The notes beneath the pieces were generated by a model. That model saw nothing but the letters and a program-made list of their open reading frames with translations. It was not told where the DNA came from and searched no databases. Positions 1 through 37,307 of a stretch of DNA of 64,000 bases are shown here, in pieces. A program made the translations under genes and the position numbers. The first letter of the stretch is position 1. Each line of letters begins with the position of its first letter. Origin of the DNA: Ascidiella aspersa (lineage: Eukaryota); contig OZ004608.1 in the NCBI GenBank assembly GCA_963924565.1, positions 35,898,001-35,962,000 on the forward strand, in the 5' to 3' direction.

Positions 1-93
1 TGTCAAGTCATTGACTGAAGTCATTACAACACTGCGATAAGGTATTAGCAACATGATCAGGTGCGGTAATAGTGCACGGTAATAGACCCGAAC

Positions 94-15000: not shown

Positions 15001-16379
15001 ATAATACAAAAACAATTTATACAAAAATCTTCCGTTAAATTTAAATACACATGTGCAATATGAACGAGGATGCTTTGAAGGACCTTTTAGCACAAACTAA
15101 CAACTAAGATTGTAAACAGAAATTAGATCACTTGTTACCTCCAGCTAATATAAATTCTCCATCCTTCTTCCATTGATATTTAGCATTGGTCAAGTTTGCC
15201 TTACATCTTAATGTGACGTCATCAACCACAGCCTCCTCCAAGTCAACAACAGTGACGTGCTTTGGCTCCAGAATGAAGATGTTGGCTGAAACTATAATAA
15301 ATACATTAAATGTTTTTGTAGCTATGGCAATACAATATTGGGAAAGAAGCAAGTAGTTATGGAGTCAACTGTGTTCCGCCTCATATACTCTAAATGACCT
15401 TCTTAACCGTATAACCTTGTCCACGTGACGACAAATTTAAACCGCAAGTTATGACGTCATTGTGTGCAACATTATTTCAAGTCAAAGTCGATTAAAATGC
15501 ACACAAATCGTTTACAAAATACAAAAAAAAAAAAACATTTTGAAACTGTCATTCAGTTGAAATTTTGTCAAAAAAATATAGTTTAGAGTTGTATTCCATG
15601 ACATTTCAATTGTATTTTGTCTTCGTTGGAGCAATAAACGGTATAGACGAGCTTGTAGAATTAGCCACCCTGGCCTAGTTTATCGCGTTATGGGTTGAAC
15701 TCGAACTTCGCTGTTGCTTTATTATTTATCTCCGATTTGGACTGATGTATTGAACAGTATTTGCAGTATTTTTTCGTCTGTGATTTGCAATTATCCCATT
15801 TCCTGTTTCGATCAGTAGGTCGTTGTTAATATTCTAAAACTATTTTACATTGTATAGCAACTGTTTACACAAAATTCTTCGAAAATACCCAGCGTCTTGT
15901 TTGTTTGTCTATTTCAAATAACAAAAAACAACAACTATAAGCATTATTATGGGCTTTGCATAAATTAGAAAAAATAACTAAAACGTGTGGTTGACGACGC
16001 GAAGACACTAATGCAGTACTTTAAACAACAATATGTTGTTCAAATCAATGTTTTTCTAAAAGGTTAAATTTTTGTCAAAAAAATATATTTTTAGGTAAAA
16101 ATTTTTTTCAAGTCAAAATTTCTCATTTTTAAGGTAAAAAAATAATCGTCCTATTATATCATACTACTTCGTTAAAGCTTTTAGCACAAATTTTAGTAAA
16201 ATTGTTTTTGGTCAAATAATGGTATTATGTTGCGGATGTTTAATAAATTTATATTATTTCTATTTGTTTAAACTGACTAGTTATTTCTAAAAAAATAAAA
16301 AAGCAGGCAATTATTTATAACATTCCAGTAAATAGATTATAATACCTGATGCAAAACTGAGAAGAAATACAAGAAACAT
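94..16379 (-). CDS. Copy A: multi-exon contactin/L1-like Ig-superfamily transmembrane protein (SP-10xIg-2xFN3-TM-cytoplasmic tail); 3' end truncated by window edge
   Basis: Hand-spliced exons with consistent phases and no stops: 16346-16379 (MFLVFLLSFAS), 15139-15291, 14858-14998, 14480-14575, 14180-14407, 14010-14106, 13705-13883, 10579-10860, 10352-10492, 9397-9531, 8825-8920, 8469-8696, 8299-8395, 7840-8018, 7195-7476 (GC donor), 7061-7115, 6512-6601, 6118-6254, 5792-5970, 5356-5452, 4768-5049, 3413-3480, 3148-3291, 2555-2666, 1301-1408 (TM), 639-974, 94-282. Ig I-set motifs (W.K.G, D.G.Y.C). Contactin-like segments: FKGKTRSRV..NQGIGVKLTC, YVSQTDGALY, LECFASGNPTP.I.WRKVNG, CNETHDERL, NLLPYIEY.YRV.SIN. 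Confidence 0.88.
1301..1408 (-). CDS. Copy A transmembrane exon (IPWFILPIILLLIVSVGLVMCFV-RKH)
   Basis: Phase 1-1 exon of 108 nt with AG/GTAAG boundaries. ~23 hydrophobic residues followed by basic stop-transfer residues. Absent from the ORF track. Confidence 0.85.
2555..7115 (-). CDS. Copy A Ig9, Ig10 and two FN3 domains (9 exons)
   Basis: Ig9: IILNCTVEGYPRPRIYWMKDG...SDEGTYSCTATN. Ig10: LQCNETHDERL..WSW...DQAGAYKC. FN3-1: HLTW..YKVE..NLLPYIEYVYRVYSIN. FN3-2: APSGV...LMTW..YIVKY..TLYQVKVAVGNEFGQS. Confidence 0.85.
3989..4743. mobile_element. hAT-type non-autonomous element in an intron of copy A
   Basis: Ends TAGGGCGATTATTTTT / AAAAATATTCGCCTA. TSD CTGATAAT/CTGATAAG (7/8). A related diverged copy lies at ~15480-16153. 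Confidence 0.75.
6830..7030. mobile_element. ~200 bp palindromic (fold-back) MITE-like element
   Basis: 22-bp terminal IR GCTGGTCTAGAATCCTACCACA/TGTGGTAGGATTCTAGACCAGC plus an inner IR (GGGTGGGTCAAGT/ACTTGACCCACCC). Further copies at ~29830-30030 and, partially, ~53035-53172. Confidence 0.75.
7195..10492 (-). CDS. Copy A Ig5-Ig8 block (internal duplicate of Ig1-Ig4), 7 exons
   Basis: Exon sizes 141/135/96/228/97/179/282 with the same phases as the first block. Paired motifs: YQCLASNNEGTALSN/YQCLATSDEGTALSN, ANFSP/ANFAP, LECFASGN/LECFAGGN, DDVAIYQCVAEN in both. Confidence 0.88.
10579..15291 (-). CDS. Copy A Ig1-Ig4 block (first horseshoe module), 7 exons
   Basis: Exon sizes 153/141/96/228/97/179/282. 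Four Ig domains, each with a canonical Cys pair and Trp. Confidence 0.88.
11073..11456. mobile_element. hAT-type MITE nested inside the end of another hAT-like element
   Basis: TIR-like ends CATAGGCGTAGCCAG / CTGGCTACGCCACTG. Degenerate 8-bp TSD CCCCTGGC/TCCCTGAC. It interrupts CAGGGTTCGGCAACC...ACGCGTGCC starting at 11052. Confidence 0.7.
11747..12225. mobile_element. hAT (Charlie-like) MITE, copy-A specific
   Basis: Perfect 15-bp TIR CAGTGGTTCTCAACC/GGTTGAGAACCACTG and perfect 8-bp TSD TTCTACAT (11739-11746, 12226-12233). Confidence 0.9.
15480..16153. mobile_element. Diverged partial copy of the 3989-4743 element family in intron 1 (copy B equivalent ~36590-37081, internally deleted)
   Basis: Shares blocks such as GTGATTTGCAATTATCCCATTTCC and AAACGTGTG.TTGACGACGC..A.ACACTAATGCAGT, and the right terminus AATAATCGTCCTA. 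Left boundary is approximate. Confidence 0.6.
16346..16379 (-). CDS. Copy A start/signal-peptide exon (MFLVFLLSFAS + VSA from next exon)
   Basis: ATG lies 5 nt after an acceptor with a TACTAAT branch-like sequence. Hydrophobic stretch. Phase-1 donor G|GTATT joins in frame to exon 15139-15291. Copy B equivalent is 37274-37307. Confidence 0.7.
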
Positions 16380-18742
16380 TTCAGCTTGTATGATTAGTAA
16401 AAAACAGATTGCTTTGTTTTTTCTTGGAAACCATACGCCAAAACAATTAGAGGAAAAAATAGGAATTTAGACAATAAAAGAAACAAATAAATGAGTGTTA
16501 ATTTCATGTAAATAGGCGTTAACAGAAACAGATTGTGGGCAATAGTGATAACTTACAATTTAAACGTATCATACAAAAACGTTGAACTGTGATCAATGTT
16601 AATGAAGGAGCCTTTATGGAGGTAATTCTGTTCAGAGTTTCGCTGCGTTTTATCAGACCAAAAATCATTAAATATCCCCAAGGCCGCCTTTAAAGGGCAT
16701 AAACTGACTCTCAAAAAACTGACTCATAAAGGTACGGGTCATTCAACCATATACATGAACTAGCAAGTATTGACAAAAACTAAAGAGATCTAAACCATAC
16801 GGGTGATAACATACTATTTCACAGGAGGGCTGCGTATTACCCTAAGCCTACAAATATTAACACTCTGGGGAAACCAAATATCGCATGATTTGTATACATT
16901 TTGCAAAATATTATATTGATGTATTTGTCAACAAATTAGGCTAAATTGGATTTTCTTCAGATTTTACATCACATCGATTTTGACAATATTTCATGTAATA
17001 ATTATTGAATATTCATGTCAGGAATAGCACTCTTATCAACAAAAAGGTAATTTACAACTTTTGTATCTGAAACCCGTTTAAAACATTTAAGAAATAACTG
17101 TAGTCAATGCTCTTCGAAAGGTTGAAAAAAAAGTTTATAAGTTTATAAAAGATCCTATGATATATTTTTGACTGAGCCCTTTAACCCCACTGCTGCCCCT
17201 TTGCGATTTAGATCTAACGGAACTACAAAGCTACTTCATTTAAATGTTTATGTTTTGGGGATTCAATCGAGGCGATAAAGACTTAACATATGACTCAGTT
17301 CCTGGAATGATTGTTATGGATTGTTTTAAAATAAGTGTGGCCTCGCAAAACAATTTTAGTCCCATGTGATTCATTTACTGGCACTTTTTTTAGGATTTCG
17401 GTTTGTTAATTTCTTGTATTTTATTACAATATAGGCTAAGTAATGTACACAGGCCCTTAGAAAGATTAATTTGTGTATTTTGTTTTAAATGAAAATATGT
17501 GAAATTGAATTCAGTTAGTAATGTGGGATTTTCCGCTTTATGAGAAAATTGTGAATCCCTACAGTGCTTTGACGCGGTACGTAGCGCTATTTCCCATTAT
17601 TTAGCAAATTAAGTAATCAAAGAACTGTCGAGCATCCACCATAATAAATATAAGGGTAGGCCCTTTGCCAATAAACCTTTAAGCAAACTGTTACTTTGCA
17701 TCAATGATGTCTGGTAGTGGCAAATAATGATGGCAATGCGCAAATTCGATTATTGTGTGTTAAGTTCACCTAAAACTGAAAACAACTTAATTTGCAAGGA
17801 ACGTGCAAATTATTTCAAGATTTTGCCACCAAAAAATATTTTATTTGCAGGAAGTTCAAGAAAAGTAGACTTTAATTTGTACCCTTCCCCCAAAAGACGT
17901 CATTACCCTTCTCAACACCGTCCTTCACCACACAATATGGAAAGCCCGAATTAAAAAAAGTCATAAACCTAGACTCGCAACCTACCCCACCCCAACACCT
18001 AATATCGCGTTTTAATATGTCAATTCGATGCCGGTGCCAAATTGAACAGGTCAAACCCAACTCTCCCCGCATTGACCTGTTCGTTAAACTTACTTCCCTC
18101 CTTTGGTACCAACTGACCCCTCCTCTCCTACCAAACTAAATTGTCCTTGCCCCATGTGAAACCAAAACCATAGGTCTGCCCTAACCCCTTCGTAAAATCC
18201 TATGTTTGTTTCTGTTTATTTTTTATTTTTTTTATTATCCCTTTATTGTCTTATCTATCTTGTATTCGTTTTTAAATATTTATTCAAATTAAGGAAAAGT
18301 TACCCTACTGTCATTGCTCGCCTTTTTCCAGCGAGACACCATTTTGTTTTTCGAACCGCCATTTTTTTTTCAGTTTTTACATTGACATTTTGGTTGATAT
18401 GTACAATATATATTAATGCATTTATCTTGCCGTGCCTTCTTCGAGAGCTGCACCAGCCCGAAGAAAATTTTTTTAAATTAAATATGTATATCCTTAGCCG
18501 ATGGGAGCTATGAAAAACATAGAGCAAGTTGTCCAGTAACACAAGTTTGGAAATGAAATTAAGTTTGGACATGAAATTATGCGATTAACAAAAGTTCACT
18601 TGAAGTAAATCTGAGAGTACATTTTGGATTAATGACTCGTAAATTATTTGTTTTGCTTTTCTAGCATACTAATAACGTCATTGCTATCGGATAGGTCGAG
18701 GCAATGCGTTGTATTATAATGTACCGACCCGCCACCCTAAAG

Positions 18743-18805: not shown

Positions 18806-21557
18806 ATTTCCCAGTTTTTTTAAAATAATTCACCAAATCATATGAGCAAATAAAACGAAATTATACGGACCCATAATCCATTTATCTGTCCATGCCTTTT
18901 TCACCGCTTATATTTATTCGACAACATTCCAAAATAAAAGACCAAAAAGGGGCAATGATGAGCCCAAACCAAAGGGGGGTTTGCAAATTGCCAACCTCAC
19001 CAACCCTGAGGTACTGAGTCCTCACAAAAGTTAAAAAAAAATCACAGAAATGATGCAAAACTGTAATTGTTAGAACTAACCATGACACACCCTAACTCAA
19101 ACGTTCACCCAAACCTTAAATTATAAATCCTGAATAAACCTACCAACGTTGGAGGAAAATTTTTAGCCGTTATATAACACTAACAGGTGTATGCGATCCG
19201 GGAAAATAGCCACTTGCATTTTTTTAGTATGGGATTTTGTTTCTACACAAACGTCATCAAAATTTAATTATTTTTTAAACGGAAATCGTAAGAGTATTAA
19301 GATAGTACGGGTTTTTCCTGTGCTGCTTTGATGACATTTACTTTTTTTGTAAACTCCACTCATCCATGGTTTGATTTGAAAAAAAAAAGTGAAAATCAGC
19401 ATTGTATATGTTTAGTTTGTTATATGCAGTGGTGAAAAAGCTTTTTATGTTACCTCATTCATATTTTCCTACTATTTTCTGGATTAACTTAGATTATTTT
19501 TTAAAATATCGCAAAGTTTAGTTTTGTCTTTAAGCTTGTAAACGTCAGCTTATAGATTTGTTGATGTCAAAGGTTGACATTTGCTAATATTTGAGGTTGG
19601 AAAGTGGTGAATCTTGGTGTGACAAAATATATAAAAGATCTTCGATATTTAACTCTAAAATCAGAGTTTATAAGTTCTGTCAACAGAAACCGGTGAATGA
19701 GATTGGATTTATTGATTGTTGCATTCTTGGTTGGATTTATTTTAGTGCATTCTTTATATATTGCTAAATTGAACCAGTTAAAATAAAATCCAAAAGCGAC
19801 ATTAGCAGTGAATAAGAATGTCGTGAGTTTCAACTTGCATTAAAACGTCATACCTACCCAAGGCACTCGTTAACTATTTGCCCTAGCCTAGGTACACAAG
19901 ATGGATAACGCAAAGCAAACAATCGGATCATATGTGGCTAAGCTAGTAACTCTCCGGACAGCAACGTCAGAATAAAACACAGTTCGGAATAAGACCAAAA
20001 TAGTGGATTAGTAACGTCTAAAGCGGAATAAAGTTCTAAAACCATCGACATAAGACCTAAATGGCCAGAATCAGTCCTAAACAACACTTTAACAAATCTC
20101 ACCCCTAAGTACATCACTAACTCCCCTAATAACCTCAACCCAAACCCGCTTTCTAACCCCACGCATTACCCACCAATAACCTCAAACAGGGCTTATCATA
20201 CAAAGGTGTGTACAATTGCGATTATTAATATTTTGGTAATAATAAAGATATGAAGTCTTTTTTATGTGCTCTGTGAAAGCAATACAAACAAAAGTACTGT
20301 TCACTGTACATTTGCCCATCACTGGAAGGCCTACTACTATACGAGGTAAAGGTTCTCAACCTGGGATAATTTGAGGGATATTTTAAAGTTCCAAAGAAGT
20401 AGATATAAACGTTACGAGAGTTCCAAATTATTATTGAACCCAAAATAAACCTTCAGTAGGAAGAAATAACCTGCGATTTTCGATACGTTCCAAGTGAGTA
20501 TATGTCTATAAATAAGTTAATCGTAACCATGGCACCATTTTACGGCAATAAAAGATAAGCCTACACCTTATGTGGCAAAACATTACTGACCGTAGTTTGT
20601 TTTGAATTCGTTTCATTGGTTTTCTTTTGCGTTCTGGTTAAAACTCACTTGACCATTGAAAGCCAATTGTTGTTTGACCAGACAGTAGATATAAACTCAC
20701 ATCATAGTAACAAGAGCCAAATCACATTCTTTTTATTGATTATGTAGAGGCAAACTGCTGTGCAGTATTTATTAAAGGCAGCAAAGTGGACAGGGCGTTT
20801 AAGTAACTGGATAATTACGCCACAGGCACACACACTATCAAAGTTTTCGTCGCCTCCAACGAAAACCGTTAAACAAAAACTGTTTAGAGGAACCGGAATA
20901 AAAAATGCCATGGTTTTACAAATATTAATAGTGAGAGAATGACGATGTTTTGAAGTGATACCGGTTTACAAAATCACCAAGTTTAGAAAGTGGCACGTAA
21001 AAAGGCGGAGATAGTAACTCTTTCTATTCAAGTGTTAAGTGTTAAAGTATTAATATTCAGGGTGATGTGTTGGTATATCAAAATACACCAATCGTGTATC
21101 AACATTGTGAAAACCATAATAGAATTCGTTACCGTGTACAGGTCTAGTGTACATAATTAGAGTGGATAGAGTAAACTTTTAATATCTAATTTTTTTCAAA
21201 AAGGTAACATGAGCTGTTGACATATTGTCGCAGACTAGTTTGTGACTCGATCCTGCGTGTTGTAAGTGCTCTCAAACATTGTGTTTAACGACAACCCTTT
21301 TGTTGCGCAATTTACTGCACCCAAGCTTAGTTAGGCAAATAAACGGTCGCAAGGTTAACATAGCCGCACCAAGTGCAGCCATATCCATGTCTGCCGTACC
21401 CATCTACACGCCATAGCGTACAATCAACCAGACTTGGACAACTAGATAATTCTAGATAATATGCCTGGTAGCAATAGTTTATATAGGTTATATTATATTG
21501 CAGTCGGTTAAATTATATCAAGGTTGATTCGATTTATGTTGAAATGCATTAGGTCCG

Positions 21558-24081
21558 CTAGGCATTAGAGTCACTGATATGTTTCCCCACATTATTTAGA
21601 TATGAAGGAAGGAAGGGTTGAGAACCAGAAATAATATCGTAAGCGCTGGATTTCTCAAGATTATCGGCTGATATTGTTCTTCCAAACCCGCATGACATAT
21701 CATCAGAAACACCATCAGCTACTTTGGTGATACTCGCATCCAAACTGACTTCCGATGTGCCGCTTGGTGAAGGTGGACAACGATCGCCCGTTGGCGCACT
21801 TGAATTGAGATTCCATACACGACTGGTTTTACCCATTTGAGCTGGTTTAGGCAAATCATGTTGATATTTAGTTGAGCAGTTGATCTCATCTTGAAAGGGG
21901 GTCGTTCCGGTAGGTAGCGAACTTTTACGGAGGGGTTTATCGTTGTCATCTTCATCAGGACGTTTTTCATCTGCGTTTAAATAAAATAACTAAAAAATAA
22001 CTATTAATTTTATTTACGGTGGTTTGAGAAAGTTTATAAAAAAGAAAAAATTTTACGAAACGAAGTTTGATTTTATTTGAACTAAACTATTGCAGCTAAA
22101 ATAAGAACTAAACTTAGCTGTGAACATACTGAGTATTTGTTGGTTTAAAATTTGTATTGGTTACCTGACAAGTAATGTTTTCATAATCATAATGAATATG
22201 TTACAAAGGTTATTAAATATCGAATATTTAGCTTATCTGTACACATGATGTACCTTCTGTGTTCTGTTGCGAGGTTTCATTACAGGAGGGAACTTTGGTC
22301 AACAATGGAACAAGCTCCGGTGGTGATGTTTGGTTTATCTCAACCGTTAGGAGAATTTTACGGGAATTATGATGTTGATATTCAGATGAGAACTGTGTAT
22401 TGTCTTCTAATGTGGTGGCTTCGGTAGGTAAATGAATTATTGACAAGGGTGTATCTTCCTCGGGAGTTTGACATTTGTTTTCATCAAAATGTTCGTTTTC
22501 TGTGCTCAACCAAAATAAGTGGTATTTTTAACTATAAACTACTAATCATGTTTAAGGTAGCTTGAAAGAATAGTTCAGAAGGTAAAGTAAGTTTGTTAAT
22601 ACTAAGTTATTCTTGCATATTTGTTTGTCCAACGTTTTGGCTGACTATTCAAAAAGCATTTATCAGCGATAAATTTATGTAAAGTGAGTTTTATGAAACT
22701 AAGTTATTTATTAGAACTAATATTTAAACGTTTTGGCCTTTGATTGTTGCGAAACTGGAATCTCCATAGAAGTTTTTGCTTATGCACTTTTGGCTGTTTT
22801 CAGTTTTTCATTAACGCACGACAAGGCAGTGTGTGAACAAGTCATTTTAAAATAACTCTAGTCCAAGTCAAGTCGTTTTAAAAAATAACAAGTCAAACAT
22901 TATTTAAGCAAGTCAAGTTATTGACAAAAATAAAACATTAAAGTATTAAAATTCTTAACCTCGTTCGATAATGAGCATTACCTTAACTAAAGGGTTAAAC
23001 TGTTTTACCTGCAAAAATTTAGAAAAAAAAACAATTTTATTAAAAAAAATAAATGAAAACACTTGATTTTATCGCAAGTCATTTACCACAATGCTTAAGT
23101 TCAAGTCAAGTCACTTGTCAGAAAGACTGGAGTCAAGTTAAGTCATTTAAAACGGCGACTTAAAGTGAACTTAAATGACAAGTCATTGACTGAAGTCATT
23201 ACAACACTGCGATAAGGTATCAGCGGCACGATCAGGTTTCCCTGCCCGAACCTTCTTCAACTTCGTAGTTTTGTGAAGGTGCACAATCGTCTGCCGGTGG
23301 CCACGTTTTATAGTCCGGTGGTGGTGTTTGGCCTGCCTCATCGGATGCGGGTAATGTTGCGGCTTCGGTAGGTGAATAAATTACTGGCAGGGTTGTATCT
23401 TTCTCGTGTGTTTGACATTTGTCTTCATCAAAATGTTTCTCTTCTGTGCTCAATCAAAATAAGTGGTATTTTAAAAAATAAACTACCTATCATGTTTAAC
23501 CTTAGTGGAGTAGTTTAGAAGGGGAAAGTAGGTTTTATGAAATTAAGTTCAATTTCGGTTTATTAGAATTAAGATTTATACCTTTATGTGAATCAGCTAA
23601 ATTCATAACTAAACTGTAAACGTCTAATGCATTGACCTATTGAAAAAATGATATCAACCAGTATCACATAAATTCAACGAAGTTATTGTATACGAGTTTA
23701 ACTGTATCGATGTATCCAGCTAATGCAATTAATTCAGCAAGGCGACTATCTGAACACATGATGTACCTTTTGTGTTCTGTCGCGAAGTTGTATTACTGGA
23801 AGGATCTTTGGTCAACAATGTTTGGCCCATCTCGATTGTTGGGAGAATTTGACGAGAATCGTGGTCATATTCAGCTGAGAACTGTGTCATATCTTCTAAT
23901 GTGGTGGTTTCGGTAGGTGAAGGAGTTTTTAGCTGGAGTTTATTTTCTTTGGGTATATATGATGTACCTGTTACTTTTGTGTTCTGTCGCGAGGTTGTAT
24001 TACTAGAAGGATCTTTGGTCGATAATGGACCAAGTTCAATTTTTGATCCTCGTTCTTCATCTTCACATGAAATTCCTCTTT
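21558..24081 (-). CDS. Copy B cytoplasmic tail: four related Ser/Thr/Pro/Glu-rich exons, with PPDY and terminal SAYDII motifs
   Basis: Exons 23767-24081, 23252-23443, 22254-22499 and 21558-21970 all start in phase 1 after CAG. Shared repeats: E..HFDE..CQTPEED, PTE.TTLED.TQFS.EY.H, LLTK.PS.N.TS.QNT. Donors (G|GTACAT, G|GTTCGG) are weak, so exact ends are less sure. Confidence 0.7.
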
Positions 24082-27000
24082 CTGTACGACAAGATTAAAC
24101 ACCAACTACATCACCATGTTAAAGAAAACAGCAGGTTACAAGAAATGCCGAATAACTTATTCTTAAAAATAGGAGGAGATATATCTGAATTCAAGCCCTA
24201 ATTTCGAATGAGATGAAACAAATTTACTCGACAACACTTACAACACTAAAAAAATATTTTCACATTAATTGTTAGACAGGGTTTAGATATTCTAGTTACT
24301 AGATTCTAGTAATTGAGTAAACATAGATGTTTACGGAATATAGTTGATAATCAAGTTGTCACACAGTTTATTTTAACCAGGTTAATTAAGAAAAATAATC
24401 ATCAATAAAATCGACATCTAATAGGTTCATTAAGACTTTTGTTATTCATTGCCATGTACAGTATTAATAGAAAATAATCTTACTTTTTACATATTTCAAC
24501 TTACGTTTTCGAACGAAGCACATCACTAGCCCCAATGAAACAAGTAGTAAAACGATGACGATGGGCCATATAAACCATGGAACTCTGTGTTCATCTATTA
24601 ATAAAACAAAGACGTTTTAATAGAGTGCATTAAATGTTTTAACAATACCTAATACGCTTTATAAATCTTCTATTTATACTATGAAGTGTATGTAAAAGAG
24701 AAAATGTTACCTACCAAATTGGTAAAAAGGCCACCTTTTGGGCTTGGAGTCAATGGCCCCCATGTTTGTCAAAATCAATTTTATAAATCCCAATATTTTG
24801 AAGAAAATACAAATTTCTTATGCTTTCAATGCGTCATATGTTTTAATTAAAGTTTTGCCAATTTGAACAAAAAATGCAATTAGTATCAATTTTGGTATTT
24901 TCATTTGGTCTCACTGATGTGAAATCGTTTAATACCGATTTGCTTTTTGTATGATGTCTATTTTATACGTGAGAGGAAACAAGGCACAGGACAATTATAG
25001 AAGGGCAGAAAGCTTAAGAACCACTGGTTTACAAACATTTAGCTTCCCTGACAAAAGTTACCTTCTAATATACCGTTATAACTCAATTTCTTAGTTGCAA
25101 TTAGTTTAGACAGATATCGTGTGCTAAACGTGAATTATAACAAATATTTTCACATCATTTTTATTTTATCCGAATTTTAGTTCCAGGTCACAAATTAAAC
25201 CAATGCATTCGAGTGTTTCATAAATAGTTCACTTTTTGGCTTATGATATATCAGAAGAAGCTTGGGTCGCAAGATTTGACCATTATTAAGTCGTGTTAAA
25301 AAAGGTTGCGAACCACTGGTCTTTTGGAACAGGTGTTGGTTTTGGTAAAATTCTGTTCTTTATAGTTTTAACAAACTACTTGGCAAACGCGAGCTTGTTT
25401 GTAGTTTTTAATCCATTTCCTTGATTTAAACTTAAATAATACAGTGTTTTCTCGGTAGTTCACTATATTTAACTGCAACCCCGGAGGTAAGGCTATAGTT
25501 GAGACAAAAGTTCTTCCGGGAATTAAACGTATGGCAGGTGGGGCAAGTAGTAAAAAATAAACCCTCGAGTTAAAAAATAAATTTTTATGCAAATGACATT
25601 GTAATGCATATTGGGTATAGGTTTGGTTTTGTATGGATATATTACACAGAACTTATTAGCTATTTCTCTTTTTTAATTTAAAGACAATCAGACTATAAAA
25701 CGCTTTTTAGTGACACCATTTACATGAGCTCTATTTACAAACCTTGTATTGCTTCAATTGTGATTTCAAATAATTCACTAAAGGAACTTTGACCAAACTC
25801 GTTGCCAACTGCAACTTTAACTTGGTACAAAGTTGCATTTTCGATTTTCGAGATCTGTAAAATATGTTTAGTCAGAAAATTAGAGCAGAGTGAAAAGCAA
25901 ACAATAATATAACCAAAAAGTGACCAAAGTTTGGTGGATCTATAACAAATATGTAAGCTTTTTTAATTTTTAAAGAAAATAACACGATTCTTTTGGAAAA
26001 GCAGATATCCTTAAAACCAATCTAGCTAGAGGTCAAAATTGTTAAATTGTTACCGCGAAATTGGTGTTACAATATAAATCTAACTAACATTAAAAAGATA
26101 TTTATCCAAAAAGCGTAAAAAACGGGGGATAAAAAATGGATCCAAGAAAGAAAAACGAGAAACAATGTGTTGGTGACTTAATAACTTAATAACTATAAAC
26201 ATCGTTGAATATGCCGGATCTCTAAGCAGTTTATTCTTTAAAATGTCGCATACCTATATACATATTGCGTTCAGACATATTCTTTAGATATATTTTGGAC
26301 ATATATTTATTGTTATATATTACTCAAGTTTTTACAGTAATTAAGGTTGATGTAGCAGACGAATAGGTTTCGTTGTGTCCAAACCACTCGGAACAAACTT
26401 TTCCGTCATCCACCGTTGCATTGTGGCAAAACCGATACTTGACAATATAAATCACTTTTGGATGATCTATCATCCAAAGTGACCAGATAGTTATAATGCG
26501 TGGGCAATTCTTACCTATACATTATGCAACATGAATTAGCTGAACAAATTAATGTTAGTTTTAATACGTAGTGCTTGTTATGTGAACTAATCAGGGGTGG
26601 ATCAGTAATTTTTGTTTCAGATATAGGCACAAACCTTATGACGTAACTATTGGAACATACTATCACTTAAGTCGATTATATAAAAGTGCGTAGAAACATG
26701 TTTGTGTTCAGTTAAACTTTCTGCGAATTCGAAAAAAAACTTTTATCTAGAATTGTGTGGTTTTGCACTTTTCTTACTTATTTTGTTGATCTTACGAGGC
26801 TCCTGCAAATGTTGGTAAGTATAAAGACAGAATAACTGAATAACCCTTACATCAATGGAAACAAAGAGAGCAACGGAAAAAATGCTCAGTCCTGCTTAGA
26901 TTAGCAAAATGTCGCGCTACTCAAGCGGATAGAACTGATAATTAGGGCGATTATTTTTTAAACTTGTCAAAAAAAGTTAAAATTTTGTCAAAATTTATGC

Positions 27001-30000
27001 GTTAGGTCAGAATTTTTTTGTAAATTAGTTAAAGACCAAATAGAATAAAAATTGACATATATCGTTTTTAAAAAAAAAGTAAGATAAAAGTATAGTCACC
27101 TTTTTGAAATAGTCGTTCAGTTAAAAAAAAATTTTAGTTATATTCAACGACATTTTAACATTATTGGTACACGCGAGCTGCCAGAATTAACCACCCAGCT
27201 CTAATTTACCGCATTAGGTTCAGCTTTAACTTCGTTTTTCATCATATAGTTTTTATCTCTATAAATGTATTGTTCTTTTTTGGTTGTGATTTGCAATTAT
27301 CCCATTTCCCATTTCGATAACTAGGTCTTTGTTCACTTTCTGCAATTGTTTTTGCGTTGTATTTTAACTGTTTACAACACATTTTTCTAAAATAACCAGC
27401 GTCTTGTTTTTCTTATGCATTTTTATAGTTGTCTGTATTTTTAAAATGACAAAAATATCAACTAAGCATTTTTATGAGTTTTTTTCCGAAAACATAAATA
27501 ATTTGACCGGGGTCAGTAAAACAACAAAAACGTGTGATTGACGACGCCAAAACACTAATGCAGTGCTTCAAAAAAAAATATGCTGTTTAAATCAATGATT
27601 TTGTAATGGGTAAAATTTTGTCAACAAAATATATTTTTAGGTCAAATAGGTCAAAATTTATCATTTTTTAACTCAAAAAATATTCGCCTACTGATAAGTA
27701 AACTTACAACCTACCTCCTCCCAATGTCTTTCGCGGTTTACTTATTTCACTCGCATTGCTGATTCCATATTTATTGATGGAATATACTCGGTAAACGTAT
27801 TCGTTGTATGGAAGCAAGTTTGAAGCATAACAAGGTTTGTTGACGTCACATTTGAAAGTAAACCAATTATCTTCTTTTTCCAAACGCCCTTCCACCTTAT
27901 ATTGAATGACGTCTGACGATTGGTTGTCCCACGTCAGATGCTGTGACGTGGCGCTCGAATTGATGACGTCAACATGAATCGGGAATGTAGGGAGGTCTAC
28001 ATTATAATTTAAACGAGTTTAACGAGACCCAAATGTAGGATTTTCTCGTGGTAACAAATCACAAAACAATAAAACGCTTGATTGTCTGCCTAATTAACGC
28101 AGTATGAATAATAAAGCAACACGCCAAAGACACCTTGATGTTTAAAAACATGTAAGAAAAAGGTGTTTTAAGTACAGAACTTAATAATATATTTCTTCGT
28201 CTATCGCATAAATATTGAGCTTTTAGATGCCTTATCAACACTGTTAAATATTGAAAGAAGCTGACGCACATACACGTCAACGTAAGAAAAAAAATGTCAG
28301 ATGGAGCGACATATATTTAAACAACCTGTGTGTTTACCAGCTATAGATAGATGTATTGTAGCACAGCTTTGATCAATATTCGTAGAACAACAACACGTGT
28401 AAGCACCAGCTTGACCATCCCCTACTTCTTTTAACTGCAAACCAAAAGTCACATTTTCGTAAGCTTGATTCGCAATGAAAAACTATTGTTCTCCTTCTTT
28501 GGTATTTTATTTTATTTAATTAAGGAACGCTCCTAGTGGCCGCCTTAGCCTTCAACAGAAACGTGCCCCGGTCCTAATTTCAGACCTGATTTTGTTCGTG
28601 GTAATAGTTACTTCTGTTGGTATGCAAGTTTTAAGTTTTTATATTTATCTCATTGTGAGCACTATTTAGGCTATAGGTCTATAGTTCTTGAATAAGAAAC
28701 GAAGTTATTGCAAATTGCAATCATCAATTATGTTTATTAACTTCTAACTGATTTCAGTAGCCAACAACTTAAAATATTATTATAAACGATGTATGTTTTA
28801 CCTGAAGAGTACCATTTACATGATCATAATCTACAACATCAGTTTCAATTCCGCCAATAACATGAGTCCAACTCCATTTTGTCTTAAGTCGTTCATCGTG
28901 TGTTTCGTTACATTGTAAAATTTGATTTTGTCCTCGTAATACTTCAACTGTGTCATTCATTGGTACAGCAACAGTGGGTTCTAAATAAACGTAAAATCAA
29001 AAACGATGTAATTTTAATCACGACAGACGAGTGTGTTAGAACATTTAAACTAAAAACTACTCAATTATGTCACTGCTGCTTGACAAGAAATGTGATCATC
29101 GCATTTCATATAGAAAACGTTATTTTACCATAAACCACAAGTTGTGTAGATTCAGTAATTGTTCCTTTATTGTTTGTTGCCGTACAACTATACGTCCCCT
29201 CATCGGATTTAGAAGTACTTTGAATCAACAATGATCCCTCGGTTAGTGATCCTTTGTTTGAGATTCTGTAAAAATCAAAATATTACCAGCTTTTGCTAAA
29301 TACCATATTAGTAGGCTGAATAAAATTTCGTTCATTTGATTCGTAAGTAATTAATTTATTTACAATGTCGAACACAAAACAAATCAAAAAAACTGCATCA
29401 TCACTAATGTTGGTACAACGATGAATGCAAAAAATCAATATTGAGTATAATAAGGAAAAAATCTATATATTTGTTTGATCTAAAATTAAATATATAAAAA
29501 CTCTTATACTTACTTAAGATTGCTTGTCATGTTAACGCCATCTTTCATCCAATAAATACGTGGTCTTGGGTATCCTTCAACTGTACAATTCAATATAATG
29601 GTCCTAAAATTGTAAAACAACACCAGTTTAAAACGTAGCATAAAACCATCCCGGAGGTTAGTTGTTTAGTCCAGTTAAGCAACTTTAAGTTAATATATTG
29701 GCCTATTTAACAACATTACTCCACTTCGAAAAGACATATTTTTTGCAACTATTTGTCCTCTGTTGCTTTGCTTGCTCGTTGAAATAAAGCACCTAATAAA
29801 GCGTCAATTTTACCTTGAATTCACAAATCGGTGCTGGTCTAGAATCCTACCACAAGAAACATTATTTGGGTTAGGGTGCTGGTTAGCGTTTGGGTTAGGG
29901 TGGGTCAAGTATTATTATTAAATAAAAACATAATAACACTTGACCCACCCACACCCAAATGCTAACCAACACCCCAACTCAAATTTTGTGCGTTGATTTC

Positions 30001-33000
30001 ATAGCTGTGGTAGGATTCTAGACCAGCGCCCTAAAATAAAATATTAAACCCTTAACTTACTTGTTTTTCAGGGATTCTACTTGATCAAAGCCGGTCGCAA
30101 AACGAGGTGAAAGTTCTATGAAAAAAAGGAAAACAATTTATGACTTCACCACAAATTAAAAAAGAAATTGGAAAAAATTCAAAGCTCATTTGCCTTTAAT
30201 TCTAAGCTTGGCATTTGAAGTCAAACTTTCAAGTGGATTTTCGGCAACACATTGATATATTGCCACGTCATCTTCAACAACTTCCGTAATCGTCATTACA
30301 CTTCCGTCTTCTGTTCCCACGCTCGCACTCACACGTGACGTCATCTCAATAGGAGCTTCATTTTTAAGCCACTTATAAGTTGGCTGAGGAATACCTGAAG
30401 CTTTGCAGCGGAATGTCGCAGTTTCGTGAAAATCGACGTTTTGAGAAAATATTCTTCGTTTAAGAAACAGGGGTTCTGAAAGTATTTTGAAATAGCCTTG
30501 AATCTTGGGAAATTGAATTTATACGGATGTACTAAGAGCTTATAGTGAATGGGTTATAGTGAACTTATAGTGACTGGGACTTATGCATCTAGAACAGATT
30601 AGGGCTAAACTGCCAGCCTCGCTAGGTTGCCATGTTACGTGGTGATAAATGTTGATTGTTGATTAAATGTTTGGCCTACCTTCATGGCAGTAGTTTATTC
30701 AGTGCTCAATGCCCATGTGTACTAAATACCAGTAGTGAGCAAATCATTTGCAAAACGAAACAATTTTCTAAACTTAAATATAGTTATTCTTCGCGTTACG
30801 CGGCATTTACTGTTGTTGTAAATTCCACTGTATAATTCCACTGCCCCTTGTGTTGTTATAGAACCCTGTTCATTACTGGCTGTGCATCGGTAGGTACCAG
30901 TGACGTCATGTATGACGTCAGGGAGTTCAAGTTGTCCTGCATCAGTGATCACGTGATTAGAGGGAAGGGATCCGTTGATTTTTGTCCACTTGAGGGTTGG
31001 ATTTGGACTGAAAAAAGATTTTCGTAAAAGTCGGTATAGTTAAATCTTATGAATTGATCGAACAGAAAAACAAAGTTGAAATCTTAATCTTTTAATAAAA
31101 GCGAAACCCATAATTTAAGTTTTGCTACTAGTTTATTCTTACTTGTAATATGTTTGAAATAATATTAGGTAGTGCTTGGTTTATAGTTGGGACCAATTTA
31201 CTAATTTAATTATTTTACAATTTTGTGAAGACTAAAAACGCAAATACTGGGGTGATTCTTTGATGTGATTTTAAGTTTAACAAGAAAGCCTGCTTACTTT
31301 CCACCAGCGAAGCACTCAAGCATGACTGATGAACCCACTTTAGCATACGTCACATTCTTCGGTTTCAAGAGCATTGTTGGAGGATTAAGTTTGTCTAAGT
31401 TAATAAAAAGACAACAAACATAAACAACAATAAGGTCAATTAGGTTAACTACAACATCCGTACTCACCAGACTTCGTTACTTTTAGGTCGATATAATGCG
31501 ATGACTTTTCGATTCGACGACCACTCGGCAAATTCCACTTATCACGAATGAAGCAGAAATATTTATCAGTTAGGTCTGTTGTGGGATTTGCAAAGTAGAG
31601 GGTTCCGTTTTGCGACACGTAATAATCAGCTCTTCCAGGTTTTCCATTGATAATAAAAGCATTAATAGATTCCCAGAAAAAGTACACCGAGTTGTCTGTA
31701 AAATAAACGTGGTTGTAATGTTCACTGGAAATAGGAAACTGCTGAAAACTTCAAAACGGATAAAACGAACATTATTAGTTCATTGAAGTTAAAAACAACT
31801 GTACTTTATAACATGTAACTTACCAGGAGCAAAGTTGGCTGTTTCACATGAAATAGCAATTCCTTTACCAACTTCTACGCTGTATGAAGTTTTACTTCGA
31901 GGTCCAAAATCATTTACAACTGAAAATATATTGGGATATTTTTAATGTTTTTTTCTGTAGCAGTGGTTTGCAACAAAGAGTTTGAATAAAATTTAAATTA
32001 CTTCAAAAACAAGATTCATTCCTCAATTACGCGTACATTTATATAAATGTATATCTTTTTTACCTGTAACGGGTTTGTTCACACTTCCCTCGCTTCTAAC
32101 CGAAAGCTTTAAAGTTGAAATATTTTAACTTTCCGCAACCGAAAGCGTTTTTTACGCTCTATGTACCGACGTTTATCGCATAACACGTCTAGTGCTAACT
32201 AACCTTAACGTTAAAAATTAAATATTAACAGACAACTTTTTTAAGTTTTGCCTTAGTAAAATTAAGTGTTTAAATATTATGGCCAAGGCTGTCTACCGCA
32301 GCATATTCCCAAACAATATGAAAAGCTACTCCTGGCTGATCGTATATGTAGGAGAAATGCAAATCAGTTTTTTTGTACCCGTATCTTTTGGTAGCAGCTT
32401 TGTTCTGTACTTACAAGTGATTTCAAGTTTTGCAGAGTTGCTCAAAGCTGTTCCTTCATCACTCGTTGCCAGGCACTGGTAATTTCCCCCATCTGATACT
32501 CGTAGTGAATTTATCGTCAGTGAACCATTCTTGCTGTTCTTGTACCTCTCTGTATTTGTTAAACAGAGCGTTATCAAAAGCACATAATATAGAAAAACAT
32601 TTTTTTACAGTAAATCATCATATGAAAACACACAGGATGTCTTCAGGGAGGCTTACAGAAACCAGTCATTCTGATCAGTATTGTAGTACAAGAAAGGCCA
32701 GTCTAGAAAAACAACTATTCTGCGGTGAGGATCAAACTCACGACCTCTGTCACACCTGACTCTACGAAAGCATATTTTTTATTCTATAATGTTTGCCGTT
32801 AGAGTTGGCCAGTACAACCCCAGAAGAGCTTGGTCACATAATACACATTGTGTATATGCATGGTTCAGTTGCTAAAAACAACAAATAAATATTAAGCATA
32901 TTTTGATTAAAGAGTTACATCCCAGGAAAATGTAATTACTTTGTCCGTCATACATCAAGAATCATGACAAAACTTCAACACGTAGTCAAGCCCATACAAA

Positions 33001-36000
33001 AGTAGATATCATTTTGAACGTTTCGAATAACTCTTTGGTAATTTATCACATCAGTTCTGTATAGGCTTTGATATTCTTACTACGTCTTACTGAAACCTTC
33101 AACATTTATGCTCCAAAAACTTAACAGTAATAAAAACATTTAATATTTCCATTTGGTCATACCTGGGTTGTTTGCTAAAATATCAAGACTAAACGGTTTT
33201 GCAATTGATGATGAACACAGCGGACTCTTAAAAAACGAAAAGTCCAACAGAGTTTAAAATTACAATTAAAAGCCGATGGTGCAAATATGCTGAACCCAAC
33301 TGTCGTGACGCGTTGTCAAATCTGTAAAATGTTGCTAATAAAGAAGTAGTGACTTTTAAGACTCACCATTTGTAATTATTTTGTGACCATCTTTCATCCA
33401 AGTGGTACTTTGTTTTAATAAGTTTGTTTCACATTGAAATGTTACTTGCTTCGTTCCATCAAAGAGTCTAACATATTGATCACTTGGTTCCCGTAAAAAT
33501 ACATTATCTTAGGAAAGAAATCTGTTTTATAATACGTCTTATATTTTATAACTGCTCTATTTTACAAGTACAAACTAGCAATTTAGTTTCACCTTTTAGA
33601 CTTAGTTTTGCATTTGAATACAATTGCCCAACAATATTTTCAGCCACACATTGATATATTGCCACGTCATCGTCACCAACTTCCGCAATCGTCATCACAC
33701 TTCCTTCTTCGGTTCCCACGCTCACATTCACACGTGACGCCATCTCAATAGGAGATCCATTTTTTAACCATCTATAGTTTACTGCAGATAAACTTGTAGC
33801 CTTACATTGAAACGTTGCTGTTTCACCGTGTTGGACAATTTGCGAGGAGATGTTTGTGACCCAAGTTGGTTTGTCTAAAAACAAACTAGTGTGAATGGCA
33901 AACAAGTTTTTAATGATAAATTGTAAATATGTACAAATCACCAGGTGGTATTCGAAGTCTAAACAAAATCAGGTAGTCGACAAGAAAATGTTTGCAAACA
34001 AGATTTGACTTGCATAGCTTGGTTGGTAGACCAACTATACTGAAACGTTTAGGAAGTTCGAATTATACTGCGGGCTAACGTTTAGGTGACCGATGTCTTT
34101 CGGAGCCTATAGTAAATGACTACCCGGAGTTCTAACGACAGAAATATCTTATCGTTGGTTAACGCCAATTTTAAACATGTTGATCGCGACCCACACGTTG
34201 GGTATGTTGGTTTGGGTCAGTGGTTCCTAACATTTTCATCCCATGGACCTCCTTACGGTGTTTAAACGCCCCCCCCCCTCCTAAAAAACAGAAACAGTAA
34301 ATTTGACAATACGAACGAAGTAGGCTATAAGTCCTTTTAACATTGTAGGCTTTTTGGCCGTTATCCAAGGTATTAGTAATCTACACTGATTGATATTTTG
34401 ATAAAAACAATATATGCAGTGGTAGTAAATACAAAAAGTCCCGCGCATTGTGACGTAATAAATATAAACTGTTCACTCCAGTCAAAATTTTGACTCGTTT
34501 GCGAAAAATACATTTACTGTTTATACTTTGAAGGGGGCTCTGCTCAGAACCTGCGTCAATATGCATGCGCGGTTTCACCCCCAACTAAAACGTGCTTGTT
34601 TTGGTTAAATTTAAAATTCCCACATAGAATTTTGAAAGTCTCTCTGTGGGGTAAATTCACCCCGGTTGAGAACCTCTCGTTTAGGGTATACTTGTCTAAT
34701 TACAATGAATTGAGCGTATAAAATATGTGACTACAATTAAGCGTATGAAATCGGGCTGACCAGGTTTGTCACCAAACATATTCTAACTGTTATAATCACC
34801 TGTTATCTCCAGTCTACCACTTGATGTCACCCTATCCAGATTGTTTTTAGCCTCACACTCGTAAACTCCAGCCATATCCCCTGTGACGTTATGCAGCTCA
34901 AGTTGTCTCGCGCGCGTGATCACGTGACTTGAGGGAAGGTGACCATTAACCTTTCTCCAAACGATGTTCGGCGTGGGGCTGAAAAGTTAAATACAACACT
35001 GTAGGGAATAATGTTTGGTGTTTGTGCAAAACATTTTCAAAACCATGAGCTAATTTTGGCAGTATTTGACATTTTATGCTTCACAACATTATTTAATTAA
35101 TTTTTATCACTCGTACAAGCTACACTTACTTTCCACTGGCAAAACATTCCAAAGTTATGGTTTCACCAACAAAAACATAGGTGGTTGGTTTTGGTTGCAA
35201 CATCATTACTGGCCCATGATGTTGTTCTAAGAAACAGAAAAGCTGTATGAGATACATATTTCTTTAATAAGAATTACAACACATCATATTTTATTTACTT
35301 TTTCCAGTAACTGAAAGATCAATACGAGGTGAGTTGTACTCCCTATAAATATCAAAGTATGGCTCCTTCCCAGTAATGTAGCAAGTATAACTGTTCGAGT
35401 CAGCAATTGTTGGGTTGGAGAGATAAAGAGTTCCATCAGTTTGCGACACGTAGTACTCGGGTGTGCCCGGTGAACCAAGTTGGTTGTAGTTTTCTTTCTT
35501 CTCCCAAAGGTAATGGACCGAGTTTTCTAAATCAAAGTACGACTTAGTGATTTCAAGGATCTTTACGGTATGCTATAAAAATAATAGATTTGCTCTTACC
35601 TGGCGAAAAGTTAGCTCCATCGCACGTTAGATTCACACCAATACCTTGCTTAGTCGTAACACGTGAGCGAGTTTTGCCTTTAAAAGGTCTAAAGTCTAAA
35701 CAGAGAAAATCGACACAAAAGAAAACAACATAAAGCTGGGCAAAGATGCATGATTGCTTGATTTTCCACTAGGCGACGCGTTAAGCACATTTTTACCAGT
35801 AATTTAAAAATGTGCCTTTGTAAACTATCACTTATCGGTATATTTTTTACATATAATATAATAACAGCTGTTGAAAACGCTAGCTTTGAAAAAAGCACAA
35901 AAACTTTGAATAGCTCGTAAAACGGTACAATTGGTTTGATTTTTTTATAAGCAAATTAAATCACTCACATTTTGTCTCGAGAAATGCCACATTGCTTAGC

Positions 36001-37307
36001 GCTGTTCCTTCATTATTGGAGGCCAAACATTGATATTTTCCTTCGTCAGAAGCGTTGACTCTTGAAATTATCAAGCTGCCATGTTGATCCACCATCAACC
36101 TGCTATGTTCTATAATACAAAAACAATTTATACAAAAATCTTCCGTTAGATTTAAAAACACATGTACAATATGAATGAGGATGCTTTGAAGGACCTTTTA
36201 ACACAAACTAACAACTAAGATTGTAAACAGAAATTAGATCACTTGTTACCTCCAGCTAATATAACTTCTCCATCCTTCTTCCAGTGATATTTAGCATTGG
36301 TCAAGTTTGCCTTACAGCTTAATGTGACGTCATCGACCACAGCCACCTCCAAGTCAACAACAGTGATGTGCTTTGGCTCCAGAATGAAGATGTTGGCTGA
36401 AACTATAATAAATACATTAAATGTTTTTGTAGCTATGGCATTACAATATTGGGAAAGAAGCAAGTAGTTATGGAGTCAACTGTGTTCCGCCTCATATACT
36501 CTAAATGACCTTCTTAACCGTATAACCTTGTCCACGTGACGACAAATTTAAACCGCAAGTTATGACGTCATTGTGTGCAACATTATTTTAAGTCAAAGTC
36601 GATTAAAAATGCACACAAATCGTTTACAAAATACAAAAAAAAATCTATAGTCAGCTTATGGAAAATTGTCATTCAATTGAAATTTTATCAAAAAAATATA
36701 GTTTAGAGTTGTATTCCATGACATTTTAATTGTATTTTGTCTTCGTTGGAGCAATAAACGGTATTCACCAGCTTGAAGAATTAGCCAACTGTTTACACAA
36801 AATTCTTCGAAAATACCCAGCGTCTTGTTTGTTTGTCTATTTCAAATAACAAAAAACAACAACTATAAGCATTATTATGGGCTTTGCATAAATTAGAAAA
36901 AATAACTAAAACGTGTGGTTGACGACGCGAAGACACTAATGCAGTACTTTAAACAACAATATGTTGTTCAAATCAATGTTTTTCTAAAAGGTTAAATTTT
37001 TGTCAAAAAAATATATTTTTAGGTAAAAATTTTTTTCAAGTCAAAATTTCTCATTTTTAAGGTAAAAAAATAATCGTCCTATTATATCATACTACTTCGT
37101 AAAAGCTTTTAGCACAAATTTTAGTAAAATTGTTTTTGGTCAAATAATGGTATTATGTTGCGGATGTTTAATAAATTTATATTGTTTCTATTTGTTTAAA
37201 CTGACTAGTTATTCCTAAAAAAATAAAAAAGCAGGCAATTATTTATAACATTCCAGTAAATAGATGATAATACCTGATGCAAAAGTGAGAAGAAATACAA
37301 GAAACAT
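21558..37307 (-). CDS. Copy B: complete paralog (or allele) of the 10xIg-FN3-TM contactin-like receptor, ~1581 aa; second FN3 partly deleted
   Basis: Exons: 37274-37307, 36250-36402, 35969-36109, 35600-35695, 35299-35526, 35130-35226, 34800-34978, 33593-33874, 33367-33507, 32415-32549, 31824-31919, 31468-31695, 31298-31394, 30811-31007 (inferred new donor), 30194-30475 (GC donor), 30061-30115, 29514-29603, 29129-29265, 28802-28980, 28338-28434, 27715-27996, 26336-26466 (inferred new acceptor), 25743-25854, 24484-24594 (TM), 23767-24081, 23252-23443, 22254-22499, 21558-21970 (stop TAG). The sum is 4746 nt, divisible by 3. It could instead be a young pseudogene if the new splice sites are not used. 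Confidence 0.82.
22827..23209. mobile_element. hAT-type MITE with dispersed AAGTC subterminal repeats
   Basis: Ends CAGTGT.../...ACACTG. TSD CGACAAGG/CGATAAGG (7/8). Many AAGTCA motifs. The tail of the copy-A equivalent is at 1-34. Confidence 0.7.
24484..24594 (-). CDS. Copy B transmembrane exon (VPWFIWPIVIVLLLVSLGLVMCFV-RKRK)
   Basis: 111 nt, phase 1-1. Indels relative to copy A are in-frame. A second in-phase donor C|GTAAGT lies at ~24504. Confidence 0.85.
25743..30115 (-). CDS. Copy B Ig9, Ig10, FN3-1 and truncated FN3-2
   Basis: Near-identical to copy A 2555-7115. A ~260 bp deletion at ~26467 removes the 68-nt exon and the start of the next exon. Confidence 0.8.
26943..27690. mobile_element. 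Same hAT-type element in copy B (predates the duplication)
   Basis: Same termini and TSD CTGATAAT/CTGATAAG as 3989-4743. Confidence 0.75.
29830..30030. mobile_element. Palindromic MITE-like element, copy B equivalent of 6830-7030
   Basis: Essentially identical sequence and inverted repeats. Confidence 0.75.
30194..33507 (-). CDS. Copy B Ig5-Ig8 block
   Basis: Same exon series as copy A 7195-10492, except that the original donor of the Ig7 C-terminal exon is deleted and an in-phase GTAAAT lies 18 nt further on. Confidence 0.82.
33593..36402 (-). CDS. Copy B Ig1-Ig4 block
   Basis: Same seven exon sizes and phases as copy A 10579-15291; open frames. Confidence 0.85.

Follow-up and report, generated by a model that had tools for sequence, protein, structure and literature searches.

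Why should two neighbouring genes differ strongly in one part of their coding sequence and scarcely at all in another? The question is raised by a stretch of 64,000 nucleotides from the tunicate Ascidiella aspersa (C2:35,898,001–35,962,000 of a 308.6-Mb assembly), here called the window; features are placed in window coordinates unless the prefix C2 or C5 is given. An earlier note on this DNA held that the divergence between two immunoglobulin (Ig) genes, A and B, is concentrated in the membrane-distal domains Ig2 and Ig3, and that binding specificity is diversifying there. Our answer, to which we assign a probability of about 0.72, is that A and B are patchworks of array segments, and that the peak extending from the C-terminal exon of Ig2 (Ig2C) to that of Ig3 (Ig3C) marks a point at which their ancestries diverge, with purifying selection no different there (dN/dS ~0.45).

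Two genes with a doubled horseshoe

A and B form a 23-kb tandem pair on the minus strand, which carries all the features of the two genes located below. Gene B (21564–37307, or roughly 21,600–37,300) comprises a tentative signal exon, 10 Ig domains, two fibronectin type III (FN3) domains of which the second is broken, a transmembrane (TM) exon and a long tail; gene A (1–16380, roughly 1–16,400) has the same layout, its last exons preceding the window start. How are the 10 Ig domains arranged? In both genes they make up two contactin horseshoes and two further Ig domains. Ig1–4 and Ig5–8 each align in order with residues ~20–402 of Ciona contactin, at 32–54% identity per exon; since both match the same region, the horseshoe module has been doubled.

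In gene B, whose Ig exons contain no stop, Ig2C (35299–35526, 228 nt with AG/GT ends) encodes strands C to G and matches contactin-2 Ig2 residues 143–189. The N-terminal exon of Ig3 (Ig3N) lies at 35130–35226 and Ig3C at 34800–34978; the counterparts of these three exons in A are at 14180–14407, 14010–14106 and 13705–13883. The second-horseshoe copy of Ig2C is Ig6C, at 31468–31695 in B and 8469–8696 in A. The Ig8 exon of B is at 30194–30475, the Ig10 exons at 28338–28980 and an exon that reads as TM-like at 24503–24594. The Ig8 donor (30194 and 7195) is GC rather than GT in A, B, C, g05 and g06, and GT in 13 other genes.

The tails (21564–24100 and 1–1000) consist of repeated Ser/Thr/Pro-rich exons, the number of which differs between paralogs; the last tail exons of the array genes are poorly conserved, with stops in some. 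We rejected a reading of the tails as those of ITIM receptors: the ITIM-like hexamer in B's last exon is not conserved in A or most paralogs, and the tail translations hold no conserved ITIM/ITAM tyrosine motif. Outside the two genes, interleaved repeats of 0.5–1.5 kb at 85–95% identity occur in positions 40000–64000 and recur at 19,700–21,300. Rfam gave no match in the window, and the five open reading frames upstream of gene B matched no Pfam family. A cellulose-synthase open reading frame scores over the Pfam cut-off; tunicates are the only animals known to have a cellulose synthase.

Are these genes expressed? In one RNA run from another sample, of which about 6% was read (reads unphased, paralogs pooled), the reads are exon-restricted and all lie on the sense-consistent strand. 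Eight reads from six starts, derived from related copies, cross the Ig3N–Ig3C joint (34978–35130) at the predicted ends. The contactin-derived family is transcribed and spliced. By homology with contactins, its products are most likely cell-surface adhesion or recognition receptors that would bind through an Ig2-type domain.

The contactin-derived array

From what were A and B assembled? Searches of the same genome and about 1 Mb of fetched, non-contiguous stretches reveal at least 23 contactin-derived genes or fragments over C2:35.36–36.72 Mb. Two horseshoes are present in six of them and three in one; five carry only the first type, of which one is truncated and one has additional Ig exons, and 11 have an Ig1N–Ig5C hybrid; in 14 of the 23, as read from sequence, a TM-like exon is followed by tail exons. 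In the two one-horseshoe genes checked, E and I, the 5' end of the fourth Ig exon resembles Ig4 and its 3' end Ig8, and an Ig8-type intron follows; a dead 5' fragment of Ig1C survives in 8 of the 11 hybrids. The chimeric exon and the remnant suggest in-frame losses of one horseshoe. A canonical contactin with six Ig and four FN3 domains, matching Ciona residues 9–1013, sits mid-array (C2:36,179,700–36,207,900, minus strand) and is the likely source of the array.

Several members have peculiarities of their own. Derived copies to the left of the canonical contactin are mostly on the minus strand and those to the right on the plus strand; a dispersed partial copy with one second-type horseshoe only is found at C5:33,555,100–33,560,300. 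Copies I and J (C2:36.454–36.465 and 36.589–36.602 Mb) show no differences in 1949 exon nucleotides and have a common stop in Ig10N, and they differ in the TM exon; their identity may reflect a very recent duplication or an assembly artefact. In gene H (C2:36.253–36.271 Mb), 17.6 kb separate Ig5C from Ig6N; the locus may be a single gene that took in a large insertion, or a pair of partial genes. In gene E phenylalanine replaces the Ig2 F-strand cysteine.

The best named full-length matches to the Ig2C/Ig6C profile are tunicate contactin-2-like proteins, Ciona intestinalis XP_026691271.1 / XP_078488522.1 and Styela clava XP_039264284. Protein database searches for longer relatives returned one weak match among 121 candidates and none among 7975, and an Atlas search returned generic Ig clusters only. 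A literature search, most subscription journals being outside its reach, turned up no account of a contactin array in a tunicate; contactin is not mentioned in the accessible part of PMC12065747, nor are tunicates in PMC13262535.

Where A and B differ

In whole codons, the exon counts that had drawn attention to this locus are accurate: A and B differ at 13/75 amino acids in Ig2C, 15/59 in Ig3C, 2/75 in Ig6C and 0/93 in Ig8, and the roughly five synonymous codons given for Ig3C are five purely synonymous ones. Those counts lacked 10 synonymous codons in Ig2C and the whole of Ig3N (4/31 amino acids). The Ig8 exon shows no nucleotide difference between A and B, and C has the identical exon.

Is the divergence then concentrated in the membrane-distal domains? 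With the signal exon excluded, the amino acid differences are 7/94 in Ig1, 15/106 in Ig2, 19/90 in Ig3, 11/93 in Ig4, 6/90 in Ig5, 6/106 in Ig6, 10/86 in Ig7, 0/93 in Ig8, 3/74 in Ig9, 18/91 in Ig10 and 5/93 in the first FN3 domain (FN1). Ig2 and Ig3 do differ more than the other domains (34/196 vs 66/820; Fisher P = 0.00025), a peak beyond chance. A concentration in Ig2 and Ig3 is not borne out: membrane-proximal Ig10 forms a second peak and is equally divergent (P = 0.62 vs Ig2 + Ig3). Ig4 and Ig7 are also elevated, and Ig6C and Ig8, which had served as controls, are among the most similar A/B exons.

The amino acid differences within Ig2C had been described as clustered in the F–G region. 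They are not: no 10-residue window holds more than 4 of the 13 (permutation P = 0.81). What clusters is nucleotide differences, 14 of 32 falling in 36 nt (P = 0.0016), many of them synonymous. The adjacent introns had been called more diverged as well. The Ig3C–Ig4 intron is mostly non-homologous between A and B (2844 nt in A, 925 nt at 33875–34799 in B), the Ig3N–Ig3C intron equals Ig3C (19/123 vs 24/179, P = 0.62), and the introns flanking Ig2C, at 6/72 and 5/72, diverge less than that exon does (32/228).

Does selection on the pair account for the peak? Between A and B, dN/dS is 0.42 in Ig2C and 0.57 in Ig3C. Pooled over Ig2C, Ig3N and Ig3C, dN is 0.115 and dS 0.244, a ratio of 0.47 that lies below 1 (P = 0.009); in the 18 other exons the values are 0.036, 0.084 and 0.43. 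The proportion of nonsynonymous changes to synonymous ones does not differ between the divergent exons and the rest (P = 0.75), dN and dS both being raised about threefold. For this pair the peak does not show diversifying selection, the ratio being neither above 1 nor distinguishable from that of the remaining exons. When more time has passed since two sequences had a common ancestor, dN and dS go up together, which is the pattern here. The earlier note had itself allowed for an older haplotype block with dN/dS near 1; mosaic ancestry is the better form of that reading, and the ratio is about 0.5.

Mosaic ancestry

If the time since common ancestry differs along the genes, which copies are the nearest relatives of each segment? 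The evidence comes from one assembly. The nearest paralog switches exon by exon. For Ig2C it is I/J for A and C for B; for Ig3C it is I/J for A (5.6%) and D for B (8.5%); for Ig10 it is g05 for A, and B hardly differs from C. Over the stretch Ig5–FN1, B lies at a distance of 1.1% from C and 4.3% from A. Sites compared three ways tell the same story: C is the odd one over Ig1–Ig2N, A over the 3' half of Ig2C (28 sites), and B over Ig3C–Ig4, where A groups with C. The Ig2 G-strand tract (codons 60–72, 35309–35347) exists as two deep haplotypes, B and C being the same here. The PHI test gives P = 0.001 in all three alignments, namely horseshoe a, Ig2C alone and horseshoe b. The Ig3C–Ig4 intron falls into a long class (A, C, E, I) and a short class (B, D, H, K).

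The A–B distance is 0.142 in Ig2C and 0.136 in Ig3C, against family means (eight genes) of 0.105 and 0.116. The peak is therefore two abutting tracts with different nearest paralogs, in which the A–B distance is back at the family background. In Ig6C the family mean is 0.111, like that of Ig2C, and the A–B distance is 0.018; the low A/B values of Ig6 and Ig8 would be due to A, B and C having shared sequence recently. Family mean amino acid distances are 0.152 for Ig2, 0.191 for Ig3, 0.187 for Ig6, 0.201 for Ig9 and 0.191 for Ig10, in gene sets that differ (5–15 genes). Codons 30–45 of FN1 (27715–27996 in B) hold the family's highest synonymous-diversity windows, reaching 0.66, where haplotypes are deeply split and amino acid diversity is not correspondingly high.

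How might such patchworks arise? Gene conversion and unequal crossing-over are the likely builders of A and B, and tandem receptors are well known to evolve as mosaics (PMC1852091 and PMC3924837, in their accessible parts). The likeness of A, B and C over Ig6–Ig9 would stem from recent exchange, and pairing nearby is probably hindered by the non-homologous Ig3C–Ig4 intron; theory predicts that pairing suffers from insertions and large indels (PMC3924837, accessible part).

Three observations count against mosaic ancestry as the explanation. Synonymous divergence in Ig2C exceeds that of the flanking introns (12/49 vs 11/144, P = 0.004), a peak of opsin-like shape. Nearest-neighbour distance among seven genes peaks at Ig2–Ig3 (0.056–0.066 vs 0.035–0.044 for Ig1 and Ig4). 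And a mosaic-only origin is opposed by a site-model signal confined to Ig2 and Ig6.

Possible selection on a few outward residues

Could selection act in addition to the shuffling? In both horseshoes, a small number of outward-facing positions in the Ig2-type domain (G strand, start of F, C–D loop and A') may diversify and so give the paralogs different binding preferences. This proposal is compatible with mosaic ancestry, and we regard it as possible, with the odds somewhat against it.

Where would such residues lie? The B Ig2C exon, the single-exon part of Ig2, was folded at a pLDDT of 88.6, with axonin-1 as best fold match. Its predicted strands are at 3–9, 24–26, 33–35, 44–54, 59–64 and 68–70, and the last two place the supposed F–G motif on the G strand. 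Codons 67–71 sit at the far end of that strand; labels of outward and inward residues come from alternation and the partial-domain model. The candidate elements match the contactin 1–neurofascin interface, formed by the Ig2 G strand, the C–D loop and the Ig2 N-terminus (PMC9633819, accessible part).

Site models were run with our own GY94 code (naive empirical Bayes) rather than codeml, on trees made per exon or per 25-codon piece from nucleotides and rescaled under the codon model. Rows dropped were J (duplicate of I), the distant F, G, L and g18, the broken exons of D, B, I and g20, the deleted Ig7C end in B and C, and, for the stalk, H and g16. With unsplit trees the signal is P = 0.0009 in Ig2C and P = 0.005 in Ig6C. 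The Ig2C value was reached in none of 78 mosaic null sets; 9 of those passed the nominal 5% line, and of the single-tree sets 1 of 39. The unsplit Ig2C signal is lost with rate variation (P = 0.26), multi-hit changes (0.65) or both (0.92). With split trees, M2a vs M1a gives P = 0.00035 for Ig2, 0.00049 for Ig6 and 1.7 × 10−7 pooled, and there is no signal at horseshoe positions 1, 3 and 4 (P = 0.075–1). The pooled value becomes 0.0012 with multi-hit changes and 0.06 with free site-rate variation. No mosaic-only null set (0/22) reached the observed statistic, but 3 of 21 did when site-rate variation was added.

Which codons carry the signal? Candidates are codons 13, 40, 45, 67, 69 and 71 of Ig2C and codon 44 of Ig6C. 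The triplet 67, 69 and 71 of Ig2C (35326–35312 in B, within the G-strand tract) has a dN/dS of 2.0–2.3 in Ig2 + Ig6 vs 0.53–0.57 at the corresponding positions of eight other domains (P = 0.0005–0.001; vs 1, P = 0.012–0.036). It is the most variable triplet in horseshoe a (rank 1 of 311, picked post hoc) and among the top 7 of 309 in horseshoe b. Codon 44 of Ig6C (31564–31562 in B) takes seven amino acids among 15 genes. In a second set-up, however, the Ig6 triplet falls to 1.25 (P = 0.55), and the C–D loop and outward face to about 1, values that fit relaxed constraint; inward and D–E positions are at 0.1–0.4. Segment 58–75 of Ig2C has a tree length of 2.44 vs ~0.9 and a dN/dS of 0.29, the mark of a deep genealogy. 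A handful of codons drive the signal, several differing at two or three bases, and the P-values are uncorrected across many tests.

Elsewhere the site models found no positive selection in Ig3 (Ig3C P = 0.99; split trees P = 0.92–1), Ig4/Ig8 or Ig1N; the stalk was borderline, with P = 0.29 for M2a and P = 0.047 for M8 vs M8a. Family-wide, then, diversification drops out for Ig3 and comes down to a few fast codons, borderline, in Ig2 and in Ig6, the supposed control. The Ig2/Ig6 signal at few codons is suggestive; we read the surface bearing the fast codons as released from constraint and possibly diversifying.

Further explanations

Might selection instead shield the whole distal horseshoe from homogenisation, so that the A/B peak is a conversion-resistant specificity block like EC2–EC3 of the protocadherins (PMC1852091, accessible part)? 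Nearest-neighbour distance in five two-horseshoe genes is 0.06–0.09 in Ig2–Ig3 vs 0.02–0.065 in Ig5–Ig8, and B differs from C at 56/383 amino acids in Ig1–4 and 8/633 beyond. But the argument leans mainly on the trio A, B and C, and a single crossover near Ig4–Ig5 explains B vs C. The distal exons do exchange, Ig3C of C and E differing by 1.1% and the Ig2 G tract of B being that of C, with the PHI signal lying inside Ig2C itself; and introns are below synonymous sites family-wide (0.09–0.15 vs 0.13–0.21). We consider such shielding unlikely.

Is gene B simply decaying, its differences the result of relaxed selection? A deletion of ~250 bp (26460–26490), found in B only, has removed the N-terminal exon of the second FN3 domain and the next acceptor; one of ~30 bp (30820–30850), common to B and C, has removed the canonical Ig7C donor; and none of 68 RNA reads over Ig1–Ig3 is ≥99% like B, in the small portion of a run from another sample described above. 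The dN/dS below 1, the absence of stops from its Ig exons and the fact that B's variants are common to C and D, not private, make decay improbable. More improbable still is a tandem assembly in which one gene's two haplotypes stand as A and B: long A/B stretches are 95–100% alike and the I/J identity makes a false duplication in the array possible, but in most exons A and B are each nearer to other paralogs than to one another.

Relation to known systems

How does the array compare with known receptors? Ig1–4 of A and B are homologous, in order, to the contactin horseshoe. Contactins have six Ig and four FN3 domains, number six in mammals and are listed once each in fly and worm (PMC10084454, accessible part); A and B have 10 Ig and two FN3 domains, and only the gene at C2:36.18–36.21 Mb fits the contactin plan. 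Contactins carry a GPI anchor, whereas the array genes read as having a TM-like exon and long tail instead; the array differs further in its at least 23 copies, its one to three horseshoes and its mosaic evolution. The L1 family (L1CAM, neurofascin, neuroglian), with six Ig and five FN3 domains, a TM segment and an ankyrin-binding motif, likewise combines a horseshoe, FN3 domains and a single TM segment. The array genes differ in having only two FN3 domains, their best sequence matches are contactins, and an L1-type ankyrin-binding motif was not seen by eye in the tail translations. L1 proteins and contactins have the Ig2 G-strand binding mode in common (PMC9633819), and a single L1 is reported in tunicates (PMC10084454; accessible parts of both).

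Clustered protocadherins are likewise tandem paralogs, in which the proximal ectodomain is regionally homogenised and the distal part diverges more (PMC1852091, accessible part). They have cadherin folds, whereas the array has Ig folds in multi-exon genes each with its own tail; its distal part is also exchanged, and its family-wide gradient is weak. Arthropod Dscam1 shares the Ig1–4 horseshoe and Ig2/Ig3 diversity, for which evidence of positive selection is weak (PMC3236188, accessible part). The analogy fits poorly because Dscam's variable parts are the N-terminal halves of Ig2/Ig3, supplied by alternative exons (PMC5465998, accessible part), whereas A and B are separate genes that vary mainly in C-terminal exons; alternative Ig2/Ig3/Ig7 exon arrays are absent, each horseshoe having one copy of each exon. 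The fester co-receptors (FcoR) of Botryllus, too, are type I Ig receptors encoded by a tunicate multigene family, with long tails and a variable gene content, but have V-Ig, sushi and two C2-Ig domains and ITIM/hemITAM motifs (PMC12065747, accessible part); the array genes are contactin-like with FN3 domains and lack a conserved ITIM.

What does the locus mean? Taken as posed, the A/B peak is a classic pitfall: divergence measured between just two copies of an array that recombines. The array is more interesting than the peak: a contactin seeded it, horseshoe number varies within it and the breakpoints are visible. Rather doubtfully, a contactin may here have been turned into a recognition code of at least 23 TM receptors, in which horseshoes are gained and lost by in-frame recombination, segments are shuffled by conversion and the Ig2-type docking face of each horseshoe is selected to vary. 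If so, it would be to contactin what the clustered protocadherins and Dscam are to their own families, and would serve cell identity, self/non-self recognition or the recognition of pathogens. Should the Ig2/Ig6 signal hold, three to six named codons would directly test how contactin-type horseshoes gain new specificities, and the vertebrates' sister group would offer, in this array, a candidate recognition system.
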